From a virus (lineage: Duplodnaviria > Heunggongvirae > Uroviricota > Caudoviricetes): DNA of 31,984 nucleotides. The stretch is from the IMG/VR virus record IMGVR_UViG_2534682327_000012; one strand, 5' to 3'. The translations under genes and the position numbers were made by a program. Positions 1-31,984 of the stretch are shown one piece after another (position 1 is the stretch's first letter; the number at the start of each line of letters is the position of its first letter). The notes under the pieces were generated by a model that made no database searches, had not been told where the DNA came from, and saw nothing but the letters and a program-made list of their open reading frames with translations.

Positions 1-1011
1 TTATAACGTCACTCCGCCTTTTAGAGGATTCAGCGCGACGGCATTTTGCAGGTAGTCAGGCGCAAGGTGCGCATAGGCCATCGTCTGCTGAATGCTCGCA
101 TGTCCCAGAATCTGTTGCAGTGCGATTATATTGCCCCCATTCATCATGAAATGGCTTGCGAATGTATGACGCAGGATGTGGGTTGCCTGATTGGGTGGTA
201 TATCTGGCTTCACTCTGCGTAAAATCCCGCAAAACTTCTCATAATCAACTTTGAATAATTTAGCGCTGGCCTCCTCTTTAACTTTTTTCTCCAGTTCCTC
301 AGAAATCGGCACGGTTCGCTTTTTACCGTTTTTGGTTTTCAGGAAGGTAACCCTGCAATTTGTAATCTGTGCTGGTTTTAGCGTGGCAACTTCCGTCCAT
401 CTTCCTCCAGTGCTCAGACATAAAAGTGCGACAAGTAAGTCATCACCATCCAAAACATTTAACAGTTTTTCGATTTCTGCTTTTTCCAGGAACGTCATTT
501 CAGGGTTGGCCTCCGCCAGTGGCGGCAGTCCGTGAATTGGGTGTTGCCCGGAAAATTCATCCAATTGAATTAATTTTGTGAACATGCCGGATAATCGGTA
601 CATGTCACGGTTTATCGTTGCGGCACTGATACCATCACGTAGTCGCATGGAACGATAATCCATCAAAGCTCTTTTGCTCATCCGGCTCACTGGTATATCA
701 CCTATGCCGCTGATGGTTTTGAGCAGATGATTAAACTCTTTTGTTCCATGCTCGTGGTTTTGCCCGTGATATTTCCACCAGATGTCCAGCAACTCACTCA
801 AAGTTCTGCGATCTGCTCGCTGACCTGCCCATTCTTTCTGGCTGGCGTAGGCGATTGTGTATCGCTCAAATGCTACAGCCTCAGCTTTTCTTTCAAATTT
901 CCTGCGGATGCGTTTTCCGTCGCGACCGCGAGGTCTAATGTCCACTTCATAGCGTCCATCATCGAGCTTCTTAATTGACATAAGAAAGCCCTCTGACGCT
1001 GTATTCACCAT
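1..1011 (-). CDS. int: Tyrosine integrase (P2 Int family), 336 aa
   Basis: Translation has N-terminal IKKLDDGRYEVDIRP and C-terminal catalytic region HILRHTFASHF ... TMAYAHLAPDYL (His/Arg box and catalytic Tyr) typical of P2-type integrases; diverged from P2 Int itself. Confidence 0.93.
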   Translation of the reverse strand: MVNTASEGFLMSIKKLDDGRYEVDIRPRGRDGKRIRRKFERKAEAVAFERYTIAYASQKEWAGQRADRRTLSELLDIWWKYHGQNHEHGTKEFNHLLKTISGIGDIPVSRMSKRALMDYRSMRLRDGISAATINRDMYRLSGMFTKLIQLDEFSGQHPIHGLPPLAEANPEMTFLEKAEIEKLLNVLDGDDLLVALLCLSTGGRWTEVATLKPAQITNCRVTFLKTKNGKKRTVPISEELEKKVKEEASAKLFKVDYEKFCGILRRVKPDIPPNQATHILRHTFASHFMMNGGNIIALQQILGHASIQQTMAYAHLAPDYLQNAVALNPLKGGVTL

Positions 1012-3028: not shown

Positions 3029-3253
3029 ATGCCGGACAACGTAGATTTTATTCAGGAACAACAGGCTGAATTACTGGAGCGCCAGATTAACGCGGCAAGG
3101 GTAAAACATTGCGGTGCTTCTGCGCTGGTTTGCGAAGAGTGTGACGCGCCAATACCTGCTGCCCGTCGTGCGGCTTACCCGTCAGCCACGCGTTGTGTTT
3201 CCTGTCAGTCAGTCTTTGAAGCAAAAAACAAACATTACCGGAGAACGGCATGA
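3029..3253 (+). CDS. TraR/DksA-family C4 zinc-finger protein (P2 orf82-like), 74 aa
   Basis: Two Cys pairs CEECD...CVSCQ with the spacing typical of phage TraR/DksA-like zinc fingers. Confidence 0.75.
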   Translation: MPDNVDFIQEQQAELLERQINAARVKHCGASALVCEECDAPIPAARRAAYPSATRCVSCQSVFEAKNKHYRRTA

Positions 3254-8690: not shown

Positions 8691-10462
8691 CAGTAAAACT
8701 CCAGAATGGTGGATGTCAGCGGGGTGCTGATACCGGCGGTGAGTGGCTCATTTAACAGGGCGTGCATGGTCGCCCAGGCGAGGTCGGCGTGGCTGGCTTC
8801 CTCGCTGCGGCTGGCCTCATAGGTGGCGCTGCGTCCGCTGCTGGTCATGGTCTTGCGGATAGCCATAAACGAGCTGGTGATGTCGGTGGCGCTGACGTCA
8901 TATTCCAGACAGCCACGACGGATAACGTCTTTTGCCTTGAGCACCATTGCGGTTTTCATTTCCGGTGTGTAGCGGATATCGCGCGCGGCGGGATAGAACG
9001 AGCGCACGAGCTGGAACACGCCGACACCGAGGCCGGTGGCATCAATACCGATGTATTCGACGTTATATTTTTCGGTGAGTTTTCGGATGGATTCCGCCTG
9101 GGTGGCAAAGTCCATGCCTTTCCACTGGTGACGCTCAAGTATTCTGAATTTGCCACCGGCCACCACCGGCGGTGCCAGTACCACGCATCCGGCGCTGTCG
9201 CCACGGTGTGACGGGTCGTAACCAATCCATACCGGGCGGGAGCCGAACGGATTGGCGGCAAACGGCGCATAGTCTTCCCATTCTTCCAACGTGTCGACCA
9301 TGCAGCGTTGCAGCTCCTCGAACGGGAACACCGATGCCTTGTCGTCAACAAATTCACACATGAACAGGTTTTTAAAATCGTCGGCGCTGTTTTCGCGTTT
9401 GAGCTGCTCAATGTCGAACAGCGTGCAGCCGCCTTTCAGGGCGTCCTCAATGGTGACAATCTGTCGCCACTGGCCGTCCGCACAGAGAAGCCCACCGGCA
9501 AGGGCGTTATGACTGACGTCGATTTCCACACGTTCGGCGGCGCTGGCGCGTCCCCGGTTAAACAGTTCACCCGACCAGAACGGGTAGGCGTCGTGCGCCA
9601 GCGTGGACGGGGTGGAGAAATAGGTCGAGCGCAGGTGACTCTGTGAGGCCATACCTGATGCCACCTTACGCAGTACCTGAAAATTCGGGATCCAGAAAAT
9701 CTCATCGACGTACAGGTCGCCGTTATGACTCTGCGCGGTGTTGGAGTTGGTGCCGAGAAAAATCAGTTTTGCGCCGTTATTGCCCAGGACAATCGGGTCA
9801 CCGGTCAGGTCAACGTCAACCAGACGGGCAAAGGCGATGATGTATTCGCGGAACACATACGCCTGCGTTTTACTGGCCGACAGAAAAATCTGGTTATGAC
9901 CGGTTTTCAGGGCACGCAGCAGCGCCTCGCGGGAAAAATAAAACGTCGCGCCAATCTGGCGGGATTTCAGGATATCGCGGATGCGGTGCTCAAGCCCGGC
10001 GCGATACCAGTGCAACTGATAGTCGAAAGACTGCTCAAAGAAAATCTGCTCCAGCTTTTCGATGGCCTCGTCACTGAAAAAATTCTTTTTCGGTTTGCGA
10101 CGCCCGCCTTTGTTGCGGTTAGCGACGTTCGGATTAAGGTCTGCCTCGTTGCCGGTCTGACTGTAGCGGTTTACCCGTGCCAGTCGTTCAATCTGGCGTC
10201 CGAGCAGGTCAATTTCCTTGAAGTCACCACCGGTTTTCTGCGGTTTGATGATGAGCTGGGTCAGTCGCGCTTCCAGACTCATTTCGACACGGCTGATGGG
10301 GGCAACGCTGTCCCAGCCGTCGCGCTGTTTCCAGCTCTGCACCGTCGGGCGTTTCATCTGCAACATGGCGGCAATCTGCGGCACGGAAACCCCCTGCCAG
10401 TACAGCAGCGCCGCCTGACGACGCGGGTCGTGTAAAAGAGTGGTGTCTGTGGTGATGGTCAT
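8690..10462 (-). CDS. P: Terminase large (ATPase) subunit P, 590 aa
   Basis: Translation from MTITTDTTLLHDPRRQAALLYWQG matches P2 gpP as I recall it; the track ORF extends 10 codons upstream to 10492, but the ATG at 10462 gives the P2 N-terminus. Confidence 0.92.
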   Translation of the reverse strand: MTITTDTTLLHDPRRQAALLYWQGVSVPQIAAMLQMKRPTVQSWKQRDGWDSVAPISRVEMSLEARLTQLIIKPQKTGGDFKEIDLLGRQIERLARVNRYSQTGNEADLNPNVANRNKGGRRKPKKNFFSDEAIEKLEQIFFEQSFDYQLHWYRAGLEHRIRDILKSRQIGATFYFSREALLRALKTGHNQIFLSASKTQAYVFREYIIAFARLVDVDLTGDPIVLGNNGAKLIFLGTNSNTAQSHNGDLYVDEIFWIPNFQVLRKVASGMASQSHLRSTYFSTPSTLAHDAYPFWSGELFNRGRASAAERVEIDVSHNALAGGLLCADGQWRQIVTIEDALKGGCTLFDIEQLKRENSADDFKNLFMCEFVDDKASVFPFEELQRCMVDTLEEWEDYAPFAANPFGSRPVWIGYDPSHRGDSAGCVVLAPPVVAGGKFRILERHQWKGMDFATQAESIRKLTEKYNVEYIGIDATGLGVGVFQLVRSFYPAARDIRYTPEMKTAMVLKAKDVIRRGCLEYDVSATDITSSFMAIRKTMTSSGRSATYEASRSEEASHADLAWATMHALLNEPLTAGISTPLTSTILEFY

Positions 10463-10635
10463 GAATACCTCGCCGTGATGAATACACGGCAAGGCTACTG
10501 AGTCGCGCCCCGCGATTCGCTAAGGTGCTGTTGTGTCAGTGATAAGCCATCCGGGACTGATGGCGGAGGATGCGCATCGTCGGGAAACTGATGCCGACAT
10601 GTGACTCCTCTAATCACTATTCAGGACTCCTGACA

Positions 10636-15403: not shown

Positions 15404-15816
15404 TGATTGTGCTGGTCGTGTTGTTATCGCTGGCGGTTACCGGTCTGTTTCTGGTGAAACACAAAAATGCCAGCCTGCGCGCCTCGCTGGACAGGGCGAA
15501 TAACGTCGCCAGTGAACAGCAGACGACCATCACCATGCTGAAAAATCAGCTTCATGTTGCCCTCACCAGGGCAGACAAAAACGAGCTGGCGCAGGTGGCA
15601 CTGCGTCAGGAACTGGAGAACGCCGCGAAGCGTGAAGCACAGCGCGAGAAAACCATCACGAGGTTACTCAATGAAAACGAAGATTTTCGCCGCTGGTACG
15701 GCGCTGACCTGCCTGATGTTGTGCGCCGGTTGCACCAGCGTCCGGCCTGCACCGACGCCAGTGATTGTCGCCAACGCCTGCCCGAAAGTGAGCCTTTGCC
15801 CGATGCCGGGCAGTGA
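15391..15816 (+). CDS. lysB: LysB (Rz-like inner-membrane spanin), 141 aa
   Basis: N-terminal TM segment then coiled-coil-like region; position after lysA. Confidence 0.8.
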   Translation: MSKLMIVLVVLLSLAVTGLFLVKHKNASLRASLDRANNVASEQQTTITMLKNQLHVALTRADKNELAQVALRQELENAAKREAQREKTITRLLNENEDFRRWYGADLPDVVRRLHQRPACTDASDCRQRLPESEPLPDAGQ

Positions 15817-16391: not shown

Positions 16392-16836
16392 GTTTAAGCG
16401 TTTTGAAGACCGGCTGACCGGACTGATTGAGTCGCTGTCACCGTCAGGGCGTCGACGACTGAGTGCCGAACTGGCGAAACGTCTGCGGCAGAGTCAGCAG
16501 CGTCGGGTGATGGCACAGAAAGCCCCGGACGGCACACCCTACGTGCCACGCCAGCAGCAGAGCGCCAGAAAAAAGACTGGTCGTGTTAAGCGAAAAATGT
16601 TTGCGAAACTTATCACCAGTCGTTTTTTGCATATCCGCGCCAGCCCGGAACAGGCATCAATGGAGTTTTACGGCGGGAAGTCACCGAAAATCGCCAGCGT
16701 GCATCAGTTCGGTCTGTCGGAAGAAAACCGGAAAGACGGTAAGAAAATTGATTATCCGGCGCGTCCTCTGCTCGGCTTTACCGGTGAGGATGTGCAGATG
16801 ATTGAAGAGATTATCCTGGCTCACCTTGAGCGTTAG
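16384..16836 (+). CDS. S: Tail completion protein S, 150 aa
   Basis: Size and position in P2 gene order. Confidence 0.88.
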   Translation: MNEFKRFEDRLTGLIESLSPSGRRRLSAELAKRLRQSQQRRVMAQKAPDGTPYVPRQQQSARKKTGRVKRKMFAKLITSRFLHIRASPEQASMEFYGGKSPKIASVHQFGLSEENRKDGKKIDYPARPLLGFTGEDVQMIEEIILAHLER

Positions 16837-16866
16837 TTTTATCCAGGCAGAGGCTGATGCGCAATT

Positions 16867-16901
16867 AAACATTGAGCGGCCATGCTGGTCGCTCAATGTT
16901 T
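16867..16901. terminator. Hairpin between convergent genes S and the slot-2 cargo gene: AAACATTGAGCG, 11-nt loop, CGCTCAATGTTT
   Basis: Perfect 12-bp inverted repeat seen in sequence, located between two convergent stop codons; no strong U-tract. Confidence 0.45.
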
Positions 16902-16907
16902 AGAGGT

Positions 16908-17693
16908 TTATGAGTGATTTTTATTTGATGCTTTGTATTCTACAACCTTCTTATTGGCGTAAAGGAATTTTGTATATGACAGGAATATAACCAGACCTGA
17001 AATGAAATAGATGAGGGATATTATTAATAATGCTTTTTTTTGGCTGTTATTATCTTTAATCTCCTGACTTAACCATTCCGAGTCCTCCTCGTTTAGCTGT
17101 AAGAGCTTATTGCAGGCGATCTCAGGAAGTGTGTCTTTTATAAATACGTTTCGTAGCCTCTTGCAATCGGCAAGGCTATAAGTTTTATTGAATTCAACTG
17201 CTTTATTCTTGAAGGATAAGAGAACTTTGTCACTATAAACATAGTACATCATGTTTTTATATGGTATGCCTATGGCATCCCTTACTATAACGGATTGTTC
17301 GTTGTGTATGTAACATGCGAGGAGAATGCAAAAAATACTGGACAGAATTACAATTATTGTTTTAATTATGTGTGGTGTTTTTGTTATGTCACCCCAGATG
17401 CGAGTAAGGAAAAAACACGATGTTTTTAGTTTTCCATCAATCAGTCCCTGCTGTATCATTCTCACATTTTCAATGCCTGATACATTGATTCCGTTAATTA
17501 TTTTAAATAGTTGAATGTCGCGCCACTCGCGGTCAAGTCTTTTTAATTTTTTGTCTGAATACCCAAAATTGAAATAATGTGCAATAAGCCTCATAAGGTT
17601 ACTTTTACCAAAGCTAAAAAATGCTAATACTGCAAAGCTACAAAGGAAAAAAACGATTAGCCCCCACACATTAGTCACATTATAGCTGACCAT
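16908..17693 (-). CDS. Low-GC cargo membrane protein of unknown function in the orf30 slot, 261 aa
   Basis: Strong RBS AAGGAG 6 nt upstream of the ATG (minus strand); three hydrophobic segments (N-terminal, central, C-terminal); AT-rich; on the strand opposite the late tail operon. Confidence 0.8.
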   Translation of the reverse strand: MVSYNVTNVWGLIVFFLCSFAVLAFFSFGKSNLMRLIAHYFNFGYSDKKLKRLDREWRDIQLFKIINGINVSGIENVRMIQQGLIDGKLKTSCFFLTRIWGDITKTPHIIKTIIVILSSIFCILLACYIHNEQSVIVRDAIGIPYKNMMYYVYSDKVLLSFKNKAVEFNKTYSLADCKRLRNVFIKDTLPEIACNKLLQLNEEDSEWLSQEIKDNNSQKKALLIISLIYFISGLVIFLSYTKFLYANKKVVEYKASNKNHS

Positions 17694-17776
17694 TACGCTC
17701 TCCTTGAATGTTGTCTGGTAGTTCTACAAATGAATCCAGATAGCATAACTTTTATATATTGTGCAATCTCACATGC

Positions 17777-18412
17777 ATGAACACTCTCGCAAATATTCAG
17801 GAACTCGCGCGCGCACTGCGCAACATGATTCGCACCGGCATTATCGTCGAAACCGACCTTAACGCCGGTCGCTGCCGTGTGCAGACCGGCGGCATGTGCA
17901 CCGACTGGCTTCAGTGGCTGACCCATCGCGCCGGACGTTCGCGCACATGGGGGGCACCTTCCGTAGGGGAACAGGTGCTGATTCTGGCCGTGGGCGGTGA
18001 ACTCGACACGGCGTTCGTTCTGCCGGGGATTTATTCCGGCGATAACCCCGCGCCGTCTGCGTCGGCGGATGCCCTGCATATCCGTTTCCCTGACGGGGCG
18101 GTGATTGAGTATGAACCTGAAACCAGTGCGCTCACGGTAAGCGGAGTTAAAACGGCCAGCGTGATGGCTTCTGATTCTGTTACTGCCACGGTGCCGGTGG
18201 TTATGGTGAAAGCATCAACCCGCATCACCCTGGACACACCGGAAGTGGTCTGCACCAACAAACTGACTACCGGCACGCTGGAAGTGCAGAAGGGCGGGAC
18301 GATGCGCGGCAACATTGAACACACCGGCGGTGAACTCTCATCAAACGGTAAGGTACTGCATACCCATAAACACCCCGGCGACAGCGGCGGCACAACCGGG
18401 AGTCCTTTATGA
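17777..18412 (+). CDS. V: Baseplate spike/assembly protein V, 211 aa
   Basis: Translation from MNTLANIQELARALRNMIRTGIIVETDLNAGRCRVQTGGM matches P2 gpV as I recall it; the track ORF starts with a TTG at 17759. Confidence 0.9.
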   Translation: MNTLANIQELARALRNMIRTGIIVETDLNAGRCRVQTGGMCTDWLQWLTHRAGRSRTWGAPSVGEQVLILAVGGELDTAFVLPGIYSGDNPAPSASADALHIRFPDGAVIEYEPETSALTVSGVKTASVMASDSVTATVPVVMVKASTRITLDTPEVVCTNKLTTGTLEVQKGGTMRGNIEHTGGELSSNGKVLHTHKHPGDSGGTTGSPL

Positions 18413-20202: not shown

Positions 20203-22497
20203 ATGAGCACAAAATTCAGAACCGTTATCACCACTGCCGGTGCAGCAAAGCTGGCAGCGGCAACCGCACCGGGAGGGCGGAAGGTCAACATTACCACGAT
20301 GGCCGTCGGGGATGGCGGTGGTAAATTGCCTGTCCCGGATGCCGGACAGACCGGGCTTATCCACGAAGTCTGGCGACATACGCTGAACAAAATCAGCCAG
20401 GACAAACGAAACAGTAATTATATTATCGCAGAGCTGGTTATTCCGCCGGAGGTGGGCGGTTTCTGGATGCGTGAGCTTGGCCTGTACGATGATGCGGGAA
20501 CGTTAATTGCCGTGGCGAACATGGCCGAAAGTTATAAGCCAGCTCTTGCCGAAGGCTCAGGGCGTTCGCAGACCTGTCGCATGGTCATCATCGTCAGCAG
20601 TGTGGCCTCGGTGGAGCTGACCATTGACACCACAACGGTGATGGCGACACAGGATTACGTTGATGACAAAATTGCAGAGCACGAACAGTCACGACGTCAC
20701 CCGGACGCCTCGCTGACCGCAAAAGGTTTTACTCAGTTAAGCAGTGCGACCAACAGCACGTCTGAAACACTGGCCGCAACGCCGAAAGCGGTAAAGGCCG
20801 CCTATGACCTTGCTAACGGGAAATATACCGCACAGGACGCTACCACTGCGCGAAAAGGTCTTGTCCAGCTCAGTAGTGCCACCAACAGCACGTCTGAAAC
20901 GCTTGCGGCAACGCCAAAGGCGGTTAAGACAGCGTATGACCTTGCTAACGGGAAATACACTGCACAGGACGCCACTACAGCGCGAAAAGGTCTTGTCCAG
21001 CTCAGTAGCGCCACCAACAGCGATTCTGAAACGCTTGCGGCAACACCAAAGGCGGTTAAGACAGCGTATGACCTTGCTAACGGGAAATACACTGCACAGG
21101 ATGCCACCACAGCGCGAAAAGGTCTTGTCCAGCTAAGTAGTGCCATCAACAGCGATTCTGAAACGCTGGCCGCAACGCCAAAAGCAGTGAAGTCTGCCTA
21201 TGACAATGCTGAAAAACGTCTTCAGAAAGATCAGAACGGTGCGGATATTCCGGGAAAGGATACCTTCACGAAAAATATCGGTGCCTGTCGTGCTTATAGC
21301 GGCGCTTTGAGCACTGAAGCCGGAAACTGGACAACCGCTCAGTTTATTGAATGGCTGGATTCCCGTGGTGCATTTAATCATCCGTACTGGATGTGCAAAG
21401 GCTCCTGGTCATATGCAAATAACAAAATCATTACGGATACCGGATGTGGTGATATCCACCTGGCTGGTTGTGTCGTCGAGGTCATGGGAACTAAATCTGC
21501 AATCACTATCCGAGTGACCACGCCAACAACATCAAGCGGTGGCGGTACAACCAGCGCGCAATTCACTTACATAAATCATGGGGACGGCTACTCCCCCGGC
21601 TGGCGTCGTGACTGGAATCGTCAGGGCGACTCAATGACCGGAACGATTAATCAGGATGGCGGAAGCCAGAATGCCTATATGTCTACGGCCTTATGTTCAG
21701 GCACCAGAGGCGGCAAAAAATATCTCAGAAAGTTTCGTGGTGGAGAAGGAGATACTATCTGGCATGAAACAGTTCAGGGCGGGGTAATTCGCTGGGCGAC
21801 AGGAAACAATGACGCTCAGGAAGAATTATCACTCAGCTCCGCTTATGGTCTCCGTTCAAGAGGTGAAATTACATCACTCAGTGCTAATGGTCTGCGCATT
21901 GCTTATGGCAATTATGGATTCTTTATCAGGAATGATGGCGGCAGCACATATTTAATGCTGACGGCCTCTGGCGATAAATTTGGGACATGGAACGGCTTAA
22001 GACCGCTGACTATCAATAACGCCAATGGCGGAGTGTCAATGGGGCATGGCCTGAGTGTTACAGGTGATATTGTCTCAAGTACCAAAGTACGTGCCGGTAG
22101 CGGGAAAAAGTTCACGGTCAGCAGCAGCAATACATCCACGAAGGAAGCCGCATTCAATTTGTGGGGAAACTCAAGTCGTCCTGTGGTGGCTGAATTAGGT
22201 GATGATGCAGGCTGGCATTTTTACAGTCAGAGAAATACAGATAACAGCATCACTTTTGCTGTTAACGGGCAGGTATCACCATCTAACTATAGTAATTTTG
22301 ATTCCCGTTATGTACGCGATATCCGGCTTGGGACTCGAGTTGTCCAGACCATGAAGAAAGGGGGGATGTATGAGAAAGCAGGGCACGTAATTACCGGGCT
22401 TGGTATTATCGGTGAAGTCGATGGTGATGACCCCGCAGTATTCAGACCAATACAAAAATACATCAATGGCACATGGTATAACGTCGCACAGGTGTAA
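20203..22497 (+). CDS. H: Tail fibre protein H, 764 aa, with an internal tandem repeat array
   Basis: Conserved N-terminal part MSTKFRTVITTAGAAKLAAATAPGG; Ser/Thr/Gly-rich C-terminal receptor-binding part; followed by tail fibre assembly gene G. Confidence 0.9.
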   Translation: MSTKFRTVITTAGAAKLAAATAPGGRKVNITTMAVGDGGGKLPVPDAGQTGLIHEVWRHTLNKISQDKRNSNYIIAELVIPPEVGGFWMRELGLYDDAGTLIAVANMAESYKPALAEGSGRSQTCRMVIIVSSVASVELTIDTTTVMATQDYVDDKIAEHEQSRRHPDASLTAKGFTQLSSATNSTSETLAATPKAVKAAYDLANGKYTAQDATTARKGLVQLSSATNSTSETLAATPKAVKTAYDLANGKYTAQDATTARKGLVQLSSATNSDSETLAATPKAVKTAYDLANGKYTAQDATTARKGLVQLSSAINSDSETLAATPKAVKSAYDNAEKRLQKDQNGADIPGKDTFTKNIGACRAYSGALSTEAGNWTTAQFIEWLDSRGAFNHPYWMCKGSWSYANNKIITDTGCGDIHLAGCVVEVMGTKSAITIRVTTPTTSSGGGTTSAQFTYINHGDGYSPGWRRDWNRQGDSMTGTINQDGGSQNAYMSTALCSGTRGGKKYLRKFRGGEGDTIWHETVQGGVIRWATGNNDAQEELSLSSAYGLRSRGEITSLSANGLRIAYGNYGFFIRNDGGSTYLMLTASGDKFGTWNGLRPLTINNANGGVSMGHGLSVTGDIVSSTKVRAGSGKKFTVSSSNTSTKEAAFNLWGNSSRPVVAELGDDAGWHFYSQRNTDNSITFAVNGQVSPSNYSNFDSRYVRDIRLGTRVVQTMKKGGMYEKAGHVITGLGIIGEVDGDDPAVFRPIQKYINGTWYNVAQV
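20722..21204 (+). repeat. In-frame 132-bp (44-aa) tandem repeat, about 3.7 copies, within H (unit KGLVQLSSATNSTSETLAATPKAVKTAYDLANGKYTAQDATTAR)
   Basis: Copies begin at 20722, 20854, 20986 and 21118; copies 2 and 3 are nearly identical at the DNA level. Confidence 0.9.
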
Positions 22498-23416: not shown

Positions 23417-23944
23417 ATGGACTGGAAAGATCTTGCATCAACCGCTGTGTATACAGGTATGACTGATGAAAATGAAAGCATATGGGAACGTGTTGATGGG
23501 GTTGACGTTGCCTTCATAGGTGCCTTTCTTACTGCGCACTTGAGCCTTGAAAAGTATATTACTGATTATCTTGGATTAAGATATCCTTCGTTAGCTTGGG
23601 GTGATGCAAAACTCACATTTTCACAAAAAATAGCTTTAATACAACATGAGCCTGCAAAACCCCCTTATGATGAAATATATTTAAGAATAAAAGACTTTAA
23701 CAGCATAAGAAATAAAATCAGTCATCAATTGAATTATCAGATTACGGATAAAGAAAAAAGTAAGTTTGTGGACTTCTATATGAAGATTACTAAAGCCAGT
23801 AAAACTAAACCAAATATTGATATTGATAACATGGCAGATTTGTTGGGTTTTTTCGTATCGATGACAAAATCCTATTTTGCTAGTGCTATTTCTTATTATC
23901 ATTATAATAAAAAGGTTGCAGGTAAAAGTAATAAAATTGATTAA
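23417..23944 (+). CDS. Low-GC cargo protein in the Z/fun slot, 175 aa; candidate HEPN-like RNase (motif R98-N-K-I-S-H103)
   Basis: RBS AAGGA ~7 nt upstream of the ATG; AT-rich; RNKISH encoded at 23708..23725 fits the HEPN Rx4-6H motif with the usual Asn after Arg; a terminator follows downstream. Confidence 0.75.
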   Translation: MDWKDLASTAVYTGMTDENESIWERVDGVDVAFIGAFLTAHLSLEKYITDYLGLRYPSLAWGDAKLTFSQKIALIQHEPAKPPYDEIYLRIKDFNSIRNKISHQLNYQITDKEKSKFVDFYMKITKASKTKPNIDIDNMADLLGFFVSMTKSYFASAISYYHYNKKVAGKSNKID

Positions 23945-24119
23945 TAAAACTGGACTTAGGGATAATTAATATATAGACGTTCTATCATTTTTAGAGTGTG
24001 CGGCAGCTCCATACATTCATGCGGATGTCAGCACCTCGCTCAAAGCAGACAGTCAGATTTGATAGCGTTTGGACTATGTAAATAGTCAGTTGGAAAATGA
24101 GTGAGTACAAATCAGGACA

Positions 24120-24146
24120 GGCGGGCGAATTGCCCGCCTTTTCTTT
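24120..24146 (+). terminator. Rho-independent terminator: GGCGGGC, loop GAATT, GCCCGCC, then TTTTCTTT
   Basis: 7-bp GC-rich stem, 5-nt loop and U-tract seen directly, ~175 bp downstream of the slot-3 cargo gene and ~100 bp upstream of FI. Confidence 0.75.
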
Positions 24147-24242
24147 ATCTGTTGTTTCATCCACTGACCAGCCAGGTCAAATAGCGTCTCATGCTCTGCA
24201 CAACAGAAAATAGTTGCACCCATTAACCACGGAGTTAAACGG

Positions 24243-25433
24243 ATGAGTGACTATCATCACGGCGTGCAGGTGCTGGAGATTAACGACGGCACCCGCGTCA
24301 TTTCCACCGTATCCACTGCCATTGTCGGCATGGTCTGCACGGCCAGCGATGCGGATGCGGAAACCTTCCCCCTCAATAAACCTGTGCTGATTACCAATGT
24401 GCAGAGCGCAATTGCAAAGGCCGGTAAAAAAGGCACGCTGGCGGCGTCGCTGCAGGCCATCGCTGACCAGTCAAAACCGGTCACCGTTGTCGTGCGTGTG
24501 GAAGACGGCACCGGCGACGACGAGGAAACGAAACTCGCGCAGACCGTTTCCAATATCATCGGCACCACCGACGAAAACGGTCAGTACACCGGACTGAAAG
24601 CCCTGCTGGCGGCGGAGTCGGTAACCGGTGTTAAACCGCGTATTCTCGGCGTGCCGGGACTGGACACCAAAGAGGTGGCTGTTGCACTGGCATCAGTCTG
24701 TCAGAAGCTGCGCGCTTTCGGGTATATCAGCGCATGGGGCTGTAAAACCATTTCCGAGGTGAAAGCCTACCGTCAGAATTTCAGCCAGCGTGAGCTGATG
24801 GTCATCTGGCCGGATTTCCTCGCATGGGATACGGTCAGCAGCACCACCGCCACCGCGTATGCCACCGCCCGTGCGCTGGGTCTGCGCGCTAAAATCGACC
24901 AGGAGCAGGGCTGGCATAAAACGCTGTCCAACGTCGGGGTAAACGGTGTTACCGGCATCAGCGCATCTGTATTCTGGGATTTGCAGGAGTCCGGCACCGA
25001 TGCTGACCTGCTTAACGAGTCAGGCGTCACTACGCTGATTCGCCGCGACGGTTTCCGATTCTGGGGTAACCGTACCTGCTCTGATGACCCGCTGTTCCTT
25101 TTTGAAAACTACACCCGCACCGCGCAGGTGCTGGCCGACACGATGGCTGGGGCGCACATGTGGGCGGTGGACAAGCCCATCACCGCAACGCTGATTCGCG
25201 ACATCGTTGACGGCATCAATGCCAAATTCCGTGAGCTGAAAACAAACGGCTATATCGTGGATGCGACCTGCTGGTTCAGCGAAGAATCCAACGATGCGGA
25301 AACCCTCAAGGCCGGAAAACTGTATATCGACTACGACTATACACCGGTACCTCCTCTTGAAAACCTGACCCTGCGCCAGCGTATTACCGATAAATACCTG
25401 GCAAATCTGGTCACCTCGGTTAACAGCAATTAA
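24243..25433 (+). CDS. FI: Tail sheath protein FI, 396 aa
   Basis: RBS GGAG upstream; size and order. Confidence 0.92.
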   Translation: MSDYHHGVQVLEINDGTRVISTVSTAIVGMVCTASDADAETFPLNKPVLITNVQSAIAKAGKKGTLAASLQAIADQSKPVTVVVRVEDGTGDDEETKLAQTVSNIIGTTDENGQYTGLKALLAAESVTGVKPRILGVPGLDTKEVAVALASVCQKLRAFGYISAWGCKTISEVKAYRQNFSQRELMVIWPDFLAWDTVSSTTATAYATARALGLRAKIDQEQGWHKTLSNVGVNGVTGISASVFWDLQESGTDADLLNESGVTTLIRRDGFRFWGNRTCSDDPLFLFENYTRTAQVLADTMAGAHMWAVDKPITATLIRDIVDGINAKFRELKTNGYIVDATCWFSEESNDAETLKAGKLYIDYDYTPVPPLENLTLRQRITDKYLANLVTSVNSN

Positions 25434-30626: not shown

Positions 30627-30845
30627 ATGTTTCATTGTCCTTTATGCCAGCATGCCGCACATGCGCGTACAAGCCGCTATATCACTGACACGACAAAAGA
30701 GCGTTATCACCAGTGTCAGAACGTGAATTGCAGCGCCACGTTCATCACCTATGAGTCGGTACAGAGATACATCGTGAAGCCGGGAGAAGTCCACGCCGTA
30801 AGGCCGCACCCGTTGCCGTCAGGGCAGCAAATTATGTGGATGTGA
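30627..30845 (+). CDS. ogr: Ogr late-gene transcription activator (C4 zinc finger), 72 aa
   Basis: Translation MFHCPLCQHAAHARTSRYITDTTKERYHQCQNVNCSATFITYESVQRYIVKPGEVHAVRPHPLPSGQQIMWM matches P2 Ogr as I recall it; the track ORF begins 21 codons upstream at 30564. Confidence 0.93.
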   Translation: MFHCPLCQHAAHARTSRYITDTTKERYHQCQNVNCSATFITYESVQRYIVKPGEVHAVRPHPLPSGQQIMWM

Positions 30846-31000: not shown

Positions 31001-31081
31001 ATCCTCAATTTGCCTGCTGCTTAATGCATTGCAGATGATTTGCTTCCGTTATACTAGCGTCAGTTGATAGCGGGAGTATTT

Positions 31082-31984
31082 ATGAATCAATCTTATGGAC
31101 GGCTGGTCAGTCGGGCGGCGATTGCTGCGACGGCGATGGCTTCGTTGCTATTGCTGATTAAAATTTTTGCATGGTGGTATACCGGGTCGGTGAGTATTCT
31201 CGCCGCGCTGGTGGATTCGCTGGTGGATATCGGCGCGTCGTTGACGAATTTACTGGTGGTGCGATATTCCCTGCAACCTGCCGACGATAATCACTCGTTT
31301 GGTCACGGTAAAGCAGAGTCCCTCGCGGCGCTGGCGCAAAGTATGTTTATCTCCGGTTCGGCACTATTCCTGTTTTTGACGGGTATTCAACATCTGATAT
31401 CTCCAACACCGATGACAGATCCAGGCGTCGGGGTTATCGTGACAATTGTGGCGCTAATTTGTACGATTATCCTTGTCTCGTTTCAGCGTTGGGTGGTGCG
31501 CCGGACGCAAAGCCAGGCGGTGCGGGCTGATATGCTACATTACCAGTCTGATGTTATGATGAACGGCGCAATTCTGCTGGCGCTGGGGTTGTCCTGGTAC
31601 GGCTGGCATCGCGCCGATGCTCTGTTTGCATTGGGAATCGGCATCTATATTTTATATAGCGCGTTACGCATGGGATATGAGGCGGTACAGTCATTACTGG
31701 ATCGCGCATTGCCTGATGAGGAACGGCAAGAAATTATTGATATCGTGACTTCCTGGCCGGGTGTTAGCGGCGCTCACGATCTTCGCACGCGGCAGTCAGG
31801 GCCGACCCGCTTTATTCAGATTCATTTGGAAATGGAAGACTCTCTGCCTTTGGTTCAGGCACATATGGTGGCGGATCAGGTAGAGCAGGCTATTTTACGG
31901 CGTTTTCCGGGATCGGATGTAATTATCCATCAGGACCCCTGTTCCGTCGTACCCAGGGAGGGTAAACGGTCTATGCTTTCATAA
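31082..31984 (+). CDS. fieF: Host cation-diffusion-facilitator Fe/Zn efflux transporter FieF (YiiP), 300 aa
   Basis: Translation [54 protein letters not shown]... recognised as enterobacterial FieF; the track ORF starts at an upstream TTG, the ATG at 31082 gives the known N-terminus; stop at the window end. Confidence 0.93.

Follow-up and report, generated by a model that had tools for sequence, protein, structure and literature searches.

What does the 83-bp interval between the reverse-oriented gene orf30 and the baseplate spike gene V control, and does it serve one gene or two? The window, as we call the whole 31,984-nucleotide stretch of DNA analysed here, is a P2-type prophage. It is an integrated one: the integrase gene occupies the left end (1-1011, minus strand), the late activator gene ogr lies close to the right end (30627-30845), and beyond ogr comes a host gene for cation efflux (FieF-like), which begins at 31064 (31064-31984). 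The prophage is not P2 itself; identity to P2 is 97.2% for orf30 and 97.3% for the first 300 nucleotides of V, and the two phages differ in the pF activator site and in the cargo of the Z/fun slot. The preliminary description of this locus gave the distance between orf30 and V as 83 bp, which is exact, as orf30 starts at 17693 and the V ATG at 17777. The G+C content of the interval is 36%, as against 59% in V.

On the left of the interval, gene S ends at 16836 and is followed by a hairpin with a fold energy of -26.8 kcal/mol (z = -7.1); P2 nucleotides 9397-9433 are annotated in GenBank record AF063097 as a 'putative rho-independent terminator for O operon'. The orf30 gene (34% G+C) encodes 261 aa. 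Its product matches phrog_2407 (PHROG 2407), a family of unknown function, and domain searches with it returned no Pfam or PADLOC match; orf30, gpV and gpS are absent from the main text of the P2 defence-hotspot papers PMC9122126 and PMC13586616. On the right, within the V operon, the tail fibre gene H (20203-22497) contains a tandem repeat of ~42 residues in several copies (about 20750-21150), with the protein pattern …AATPKAVK.AYDLANGKYTAQDATTARKGLVQLSSATNS.SETL…, seen both in translation and as long antisense ORFs. The features that bear on the control of V are collected in Table 1.

Table 1. Positions of the genes and control elements discussed in the text, in window coordinates.
Feature	Coordinates	Strand	Basis
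Activator site common to divergent pP and pO	10529..10552	+	P2 annotation 3057-3087; top PWM match
Hairpin terminator between S and the orf30 3' end	16866..16902		P2 annotation 9397-9433
orf30, nonessential AT-rich cargo gene	16908..17693	-	ORF list and AF063097 annotation
orf30-V intergenic region, the P2 pV control region	17694..17776		ORF ends and P2 identity
Activator (Ogr) binding site TGTTGTCTGGTAGTTCTACAAATG	17709..17732	+	P2 annotation, family position, PWM, variation pattern
TGT-N11-ACA string TGTCTGGTAGTTCTACA	17712..17728	+	Exact match
Putative extended -10-like element TGcAATCTC	17762..17770 (-15..-7)	+	Sequence and family alignment
V-operon transcription start, A of the V ATG	17777	+	P2 annotation at 10308
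Gene V (baseplate spike), first of late operon V-W-J-I-H-G	17777..18412	+	ORF list, P2 identity and annotation
Activator site of pF	24150..24173	+	Second PWM match; ~70-93 bp upstream of FI (start 24243)
ogr, cognate zinc-finger late activator	30627..30845	+	Pfam PF04606 Ogr_Delta, E = 1e-21

Comparison with P2 answers the first part of the question. Positions 17694-17776 are 100% identical to P2 10225-10307, and the wider segment 17600-17900 matches phage P2 at 99.3% identity and several P2-like phages at 100%. In AF063097, nucleotides 10239-10266 (window 17708-17735) are annotated as 'activator binding site; activation of pV promoter', and nucleotide 10308, the first base of the V coding sequence (window 17777), as 'transcription start site for V operon'. 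It is very likely that this interval is pV, the late promoter that Ogr activates in a P2-type prophage, and that it directs a V start at or next to 17777; the start point and Ogr binding rest on the GenBank annotation and a secondary citation. The finding of pV is real, and this promoter is already mapped and annotated for P2. The activator, a protein of 72 aa, is encoded within the same prophage as pV. The proposals of the preliminary description that the 83 bp contain the V late promoter, and that a TGT/ACA dyad within them is its Ogr/Delta-type activator site, are both borne out: pV spans -66 to -1 relative to V, and AF063097 annotates exactly such a site. The alignment with the P2 late promoters that it called for gives identity to pV over the full 83 bp and site-to-start distances at pO/pP and pF that agree.

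Among 5,426 complete Escherichia coli genomes, 463 carry the orf30-type junction (17640-17830) at full length, and at least the V part of this segment is found in 1,480. When 19 distinct loci of the orf30 type are compared, 4 of the 83 columns (4.8%) are variable, compared with 21% for orf30 and 12% for V. Within the activator site, variation is confined to the spacer positions 17715 and 17720, and conservation in the region is highest in the pV core at 17733-17776, where a single column out of 44 varies.

The activator site is partly symmetric, reading GTTGT...ACAAA at 17710-17730, with the left half TTGT at 17711-17714 (-66 to -63) and the right half at 17726-17730. The TGT-N11-ACA string TGTCTGGTAGTTCTACA that had drawn attention to the locus is present, but 4 nt to the right of the position first given for it (about 17708-17724). 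The consensus TGT-N12-ACA, which the preliminary description had given, is the published one; PMC3931495 gives it for pP, pO, pV and pF, citing Christie & Calendar 1985 and Julien & Calendar 1995. Such strings are not enriched in the window: TGT-N11-ACA occurs seven times, which is not above chance (8.6 ± 2.5 expected), and perfect TGT-N12-ACA three times (8.3 expected). The three perfect strings, at 15446, 20331 and 30901, were set aside, as all lie inside genes and none at a late promoter. The significance of the dyad derives from its identity to the annotated P2 site, its distance of ~56 bp from the annotated start and its conserved position. Taking the start from the annotation (17777), the site centre at 17720.5 (N12 register) falls at -56.5; at the other three P2 late promoters, site centres lie 55.5-57.5 bp from the annotated starts (pO and pP, 55.5; pF, ~57.5).

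Two further elements were considered and rejected. An imperfect 11-bp inverted repeat, ATGTTGTCTGG (17708-17718) and CCAGATAGCAT (17736-17746), spans the activator site with a fold z of -2.4; a lineage of orf30 variants changes 17715 from C to A with no compensating change, and the plus strand is untranscribed there if the start is 17777, on which grounds we regard the repeat as probably fortuitous. A second TTGT, at -18, recalls the Delta site that P4 Psid has at -18; it is seen in the orf30 type alone, and its score against the position weight matrix (PWM) described below is low.

To place the site in its family, we assembled 160 loci encoding gpV relatives from IMG/VR and GTDB species genomes, anchored each on the V ATG, and grouped them at <70% identity over -80 to -1 of V into 42 clusters. 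In 39 of the 42, TTGT starts at -66 or -65 of the V ATG, and the remaining three keep TGT within 1 bp. The position is the same where cargo is absent (Wphi type, S ending 66 bp upstream), where it runs forward (L018, L040) and where it is reversed (orf30 type, L047, L072). The homology that the window shares with Wphi-type phages stops precisely at the V ATG; the promoter sequence has thus been fully turned over while the site has kept its place. The site consensus is an imperfect 22-bp palindrome, G(-1)-TTGT-g-T-c-A ... R14. M16. A18 A19 C20, where T0 is the first T of TTGT.

A PWM was then built from 38 clusters, leaving out that of the window, and both strands of the 32-kb window were scanned with it. 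The two best matches are the pO/pP site at 10529-10552 (20.9 bits) and the pF site at 24150-24173 (20.5 bits); as neither belonged to the training set, the motif is validated as a late-activator site. The pV site scores 10.4 bits and ranks fourth in the window, the lowest of the four late sites, below the weakest of the 38 training sites (13.8 bits) and below the best match in shuffled windows (mean 13.0 bits). The P2-type pV site is real but is the poorest match in its family; given this low score and the chance-level frequency of the dyad, it is weak by sequence alone. Could the dyad then be a chance match, with the V operon expressed from elsewhere? Pattern frequency and PWM score are both what a chance match would give, but AF063097 annotates this exact site and start, the position is conserved in 39 of the 42 clusters, and a terminator separates S from orf30, which speaks against V being expressed from elsewhere. 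We consider a chance match scarcely credible.

With the site identified as that of pV, its spacing can be examined. The preliminary description had called the dyad one base pair shorter than the consensus; TGT-N11-ACA is indeed present, but a real 1-bp compression is not established, since the count depends on the register chosen. Against TGT-N12-ACA, the pV site matches at four of six positions in the N12 register (TGT-N12-CAA) and at all six with N11. The P2 pO/pP and pF sites and the pF site of the window read TGT-N12-CCA, so that the other P2 late sites match at five of six positions. No late site of P2 or of the window is a perfect N12 dyad, those of P4 alone being perfect, and an imperfect N12 dyad is therefore normal at these promoters.

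A true spacing variant would hold the half-sites TTGT and ACAA of P2-type pV at 11 rather than 12 bp, altering the efficacy of Ogr. TTGT-N11-ACAA forms a perfect 4+4 inverted repeat, where the N12 register yields only CAAA on the right; pV is also the lowest-scoring of the four late sites, and in other clusters ACAA matches best at N10 or N11 (tally of best registers across clusters: N12, 15.1; N10, 9.5; N11, 5.9). The right-half columns of the family motif tell against it, since A18 (35 of 39) and A19 (30 of 39) are satisfied at pV without any shift, and the family varies in the length of its A run (ACAAC, ACAAAT, ACAAAAC) between fixed outer columns TT…AA. The PWM cannot tell the registers apart (likelihood ratio ~0.84, from cluster counts). 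We regard an authentic spacing variant as rather unlikely.

Downstream of the activator site, the core of pV appears to be a poor sigma-70 promoter with only the extended -10-like TGcAATCTC. A scan of both strands of 17600-18100 with the sigma-70 consensus found no promoter, which for pV is expected, the promoter being activator-dependent. The family alignment gives a core of aTTGcc at -37 to -32 and GCATCCT at -14 to -7; its best-conserved -10-like columns are G at -14, A at -12 and -11, and T at -7. No Shine-Dalgarno sequence precedes V in the window, and a 4-mer resembling one is found upstream of V in only 3 of the 42 clusters. The scarcity of Shine-Dalgarno sequences, together with a -10-like element ending at -7, agrees with transcription beginning on the A of the ATG or beside it, and the V mRNA appears to be leaderless across the family. 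We take P2 V to be a classic leaderless mRNA, and the start annotated in GenBank supports this.

A model for the activation of V can be proposed from these elements. In the established P2 model, activation works through RNA polymerase's alpha subunit. Ogr, made from 30627-30845, would bind the site at 17710-17730, centred ~56 bp upstream of the start, and would bring the host's RNA polymerase to a core whose -35 region is weak and whose -10-like element is of the extended kind; we infer both where the -10 lies and how Ogr activates. Transcription would begin at or next to 17777, giving a leaderless V-W-J-I-H-G mRNA.

The second part of the question is whether the same 83 bp also control orf30. 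Of the 83 bp, pV takes 66, and the remaining 17 hold only the ribosome-binding site of orf30, whose Shine-Dalgarno sequence AAGGAG is the reverse complement of 17700-17705. The preliminary description had assumed an orf30 promoter in the interval shared with V; none is established within the 83 bp, as no sigma-70-like site occurs on either strand of 17600-18100. It had also suggested that orf30 and V might be co-regulated; a shared Ogr site would be one way. A precedent exists in P2, where the single pP/pO site drives two promoters, and the pV site is itself partly symmetric, so that one Ogr site could be imagined to drive both V and orf30. The geometry contradicts this. The site centre at 17720.5 is only ~27 bp from the orf30 ATG (17693); a leftward start ~55 bp away would fall at ~17665, within orf30 and 28 nt beyond its ATG, and even one ~41 bp away (~17679) would lie in the coding sequence, where the next Met is codon 34. 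Moreover, orf30 is annotated as nonessential cargo and not as a late gene. We reject co-regulation through a shared site, a very improbable arrangement on this evidence, and keep to an Ogr site that serves V.

A different arrangement would add to the pV reading without replacing it: a minus-strand promoter for orf30 interleaved with the pV core. RNA polymerase or Ogr at pV would then silence orf30 late in infection, and in the lysogen pV would face competition from transcription of orf30. Only 17 bp separate the orf30 ATG and the activator site, which obliges any orf30 promoter either to overlap pV or to sit in V. Two sequence features point the same way: i) in reverse-cargo types the pV core is AT-rich and free of the hairpin all the way to the V ATG, and ii) no stretch of the region is more conserved than the pV core at 17733-17776. 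In L047, which has reverse cargo and the same 83-bp spacing, a minus-strand TCGATA-N18-TATCAT lies at -25 to -54, over the right half of the site. On the other hand, the minus strand of 17600-18100 has no promoter-like site, nor is there one in type F, and our literature search found no orf30 expression data. Such a switch is a tentative proposal, which we hold to be possible and not probable; mutual interference between orf30 and V, as raised in the preliminary description, may likewise occur.

The hairpin bears on this proposal from both sides. A GC hairpin in the promoter core occurs in 13 of 16 clusters whose upstream neighbour is co-directional (S or forward cargo) and in 3 of 19 with a reverse neighbour, 16 of which do without; the association with neighbour orientation gives a Fisher p of 1.5e-4, the clusters not being independent. 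The example in L003 (Wphi), GCCGCCGG-N6-CCGGCGGC at 1466-1489, folds at -19.5 kcal/mol and has no U tract, and the same type of GC hairpin is seen at many loci among L086-L165, at -35 to -12 of the V ATG. This core hairpin may stop transcription arriving from upstream within the promoter that follows. The association is explained equally well if co-directional genes require a terminator behind them; this weakens it as support for an interleaved orf30 promoter, as does the fact that the hairpin counts come from clusters that are not phylogenetically independent.

Cargo is widespread in the S-V slot: inserts of 0.8-2.3 kb, in either orientation, are found in 29 of the 35 clusters in which S could be located. 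In three clusters, those of the window, L047 and L092, a reverse cargo gene starts 82-83 bp from the V ATG. A second slot invites comparison. The Z/fun slot (23417-23944) of the window holds a plus-strand ORF of 175 aa without a Pfam match in place of fun(Z), and the pF activator site (region 24100-24250) is TGTTGTTTCATCCACTGACCAGCC, where P2 has GGTTGTGCTGTCGATTAGCCAACC; these differences in site and cargo indicate promoter turnover beside the cargo slot there too.

A broader speculation extends the interleaved arrangement to the family. Reverse cargo cassettes would carry their own rebuilt pV with the cargo promoter interleaved, making late transcription and cargo expression mutually exclusive; we think this unlikely. 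The same reading would have the exchangeable unit take in all of the promoter as far as V's first base, a corollary to which we likewise attach a low probability. If true, the cargo would have a built-in lysogeny/lysis switch, and the weak, N11-readable P2-type site would be a by-product of double use.

Taken together, the 83 bp are the textbook pV of P2, annotated in GenBank, and the comparative results leave the known picture of late gene control unchanged. They describe an activator half-site that keeps a fixed distance to the V start codon through full turnover of the sequence and of the neighbouring cargo, and a promoter core whose character changes according to the direction in which the upstream gene runs. 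These results could help annotators of cargo (defence) slots in P2-like prophages to place promoter boundaries.

Among known systems, P2 pV (AF063097) is the closest: it has the same 83 bp, the same flanking genes orf30 and V, and the same annotated site and start, so that as a promoter it shows no difference from that of the window. The pP/pO pair of P2 shares with pV the activator, the left half TGTTGT and a centre ~55 bp from the start. In AF063097, one site at 3057-3087 serves the starts 3016 and 3127, each ~55.5 bp away. The pair thus differs from pV in that one site feeds two late promoters 111 bp apart, whereas at pV the leftward partner would lie inside orf30, and its site matches the family motif far better (20.9 versus 10.4 bits). 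The P4 promoters Psid and PLL (see PMC3931495) resemble pV in their TGT...ACA dyad and in responding to the same activator family (Delta/Ogr), and differ in having perfect TGT-N12-ACA, of which Psid has two (9493, 9531). Lastly, the Wphi-type and 186-type V promoters, which have no S-V cargo, are like that of the window in carrying TTGT at -66/-65 and in lacking a Shine-Dalgarno sequence; their cores place a GC hairpin between the -35-like and -10-like elements, whereas the core in the window is AT-rich and hairpin-free.
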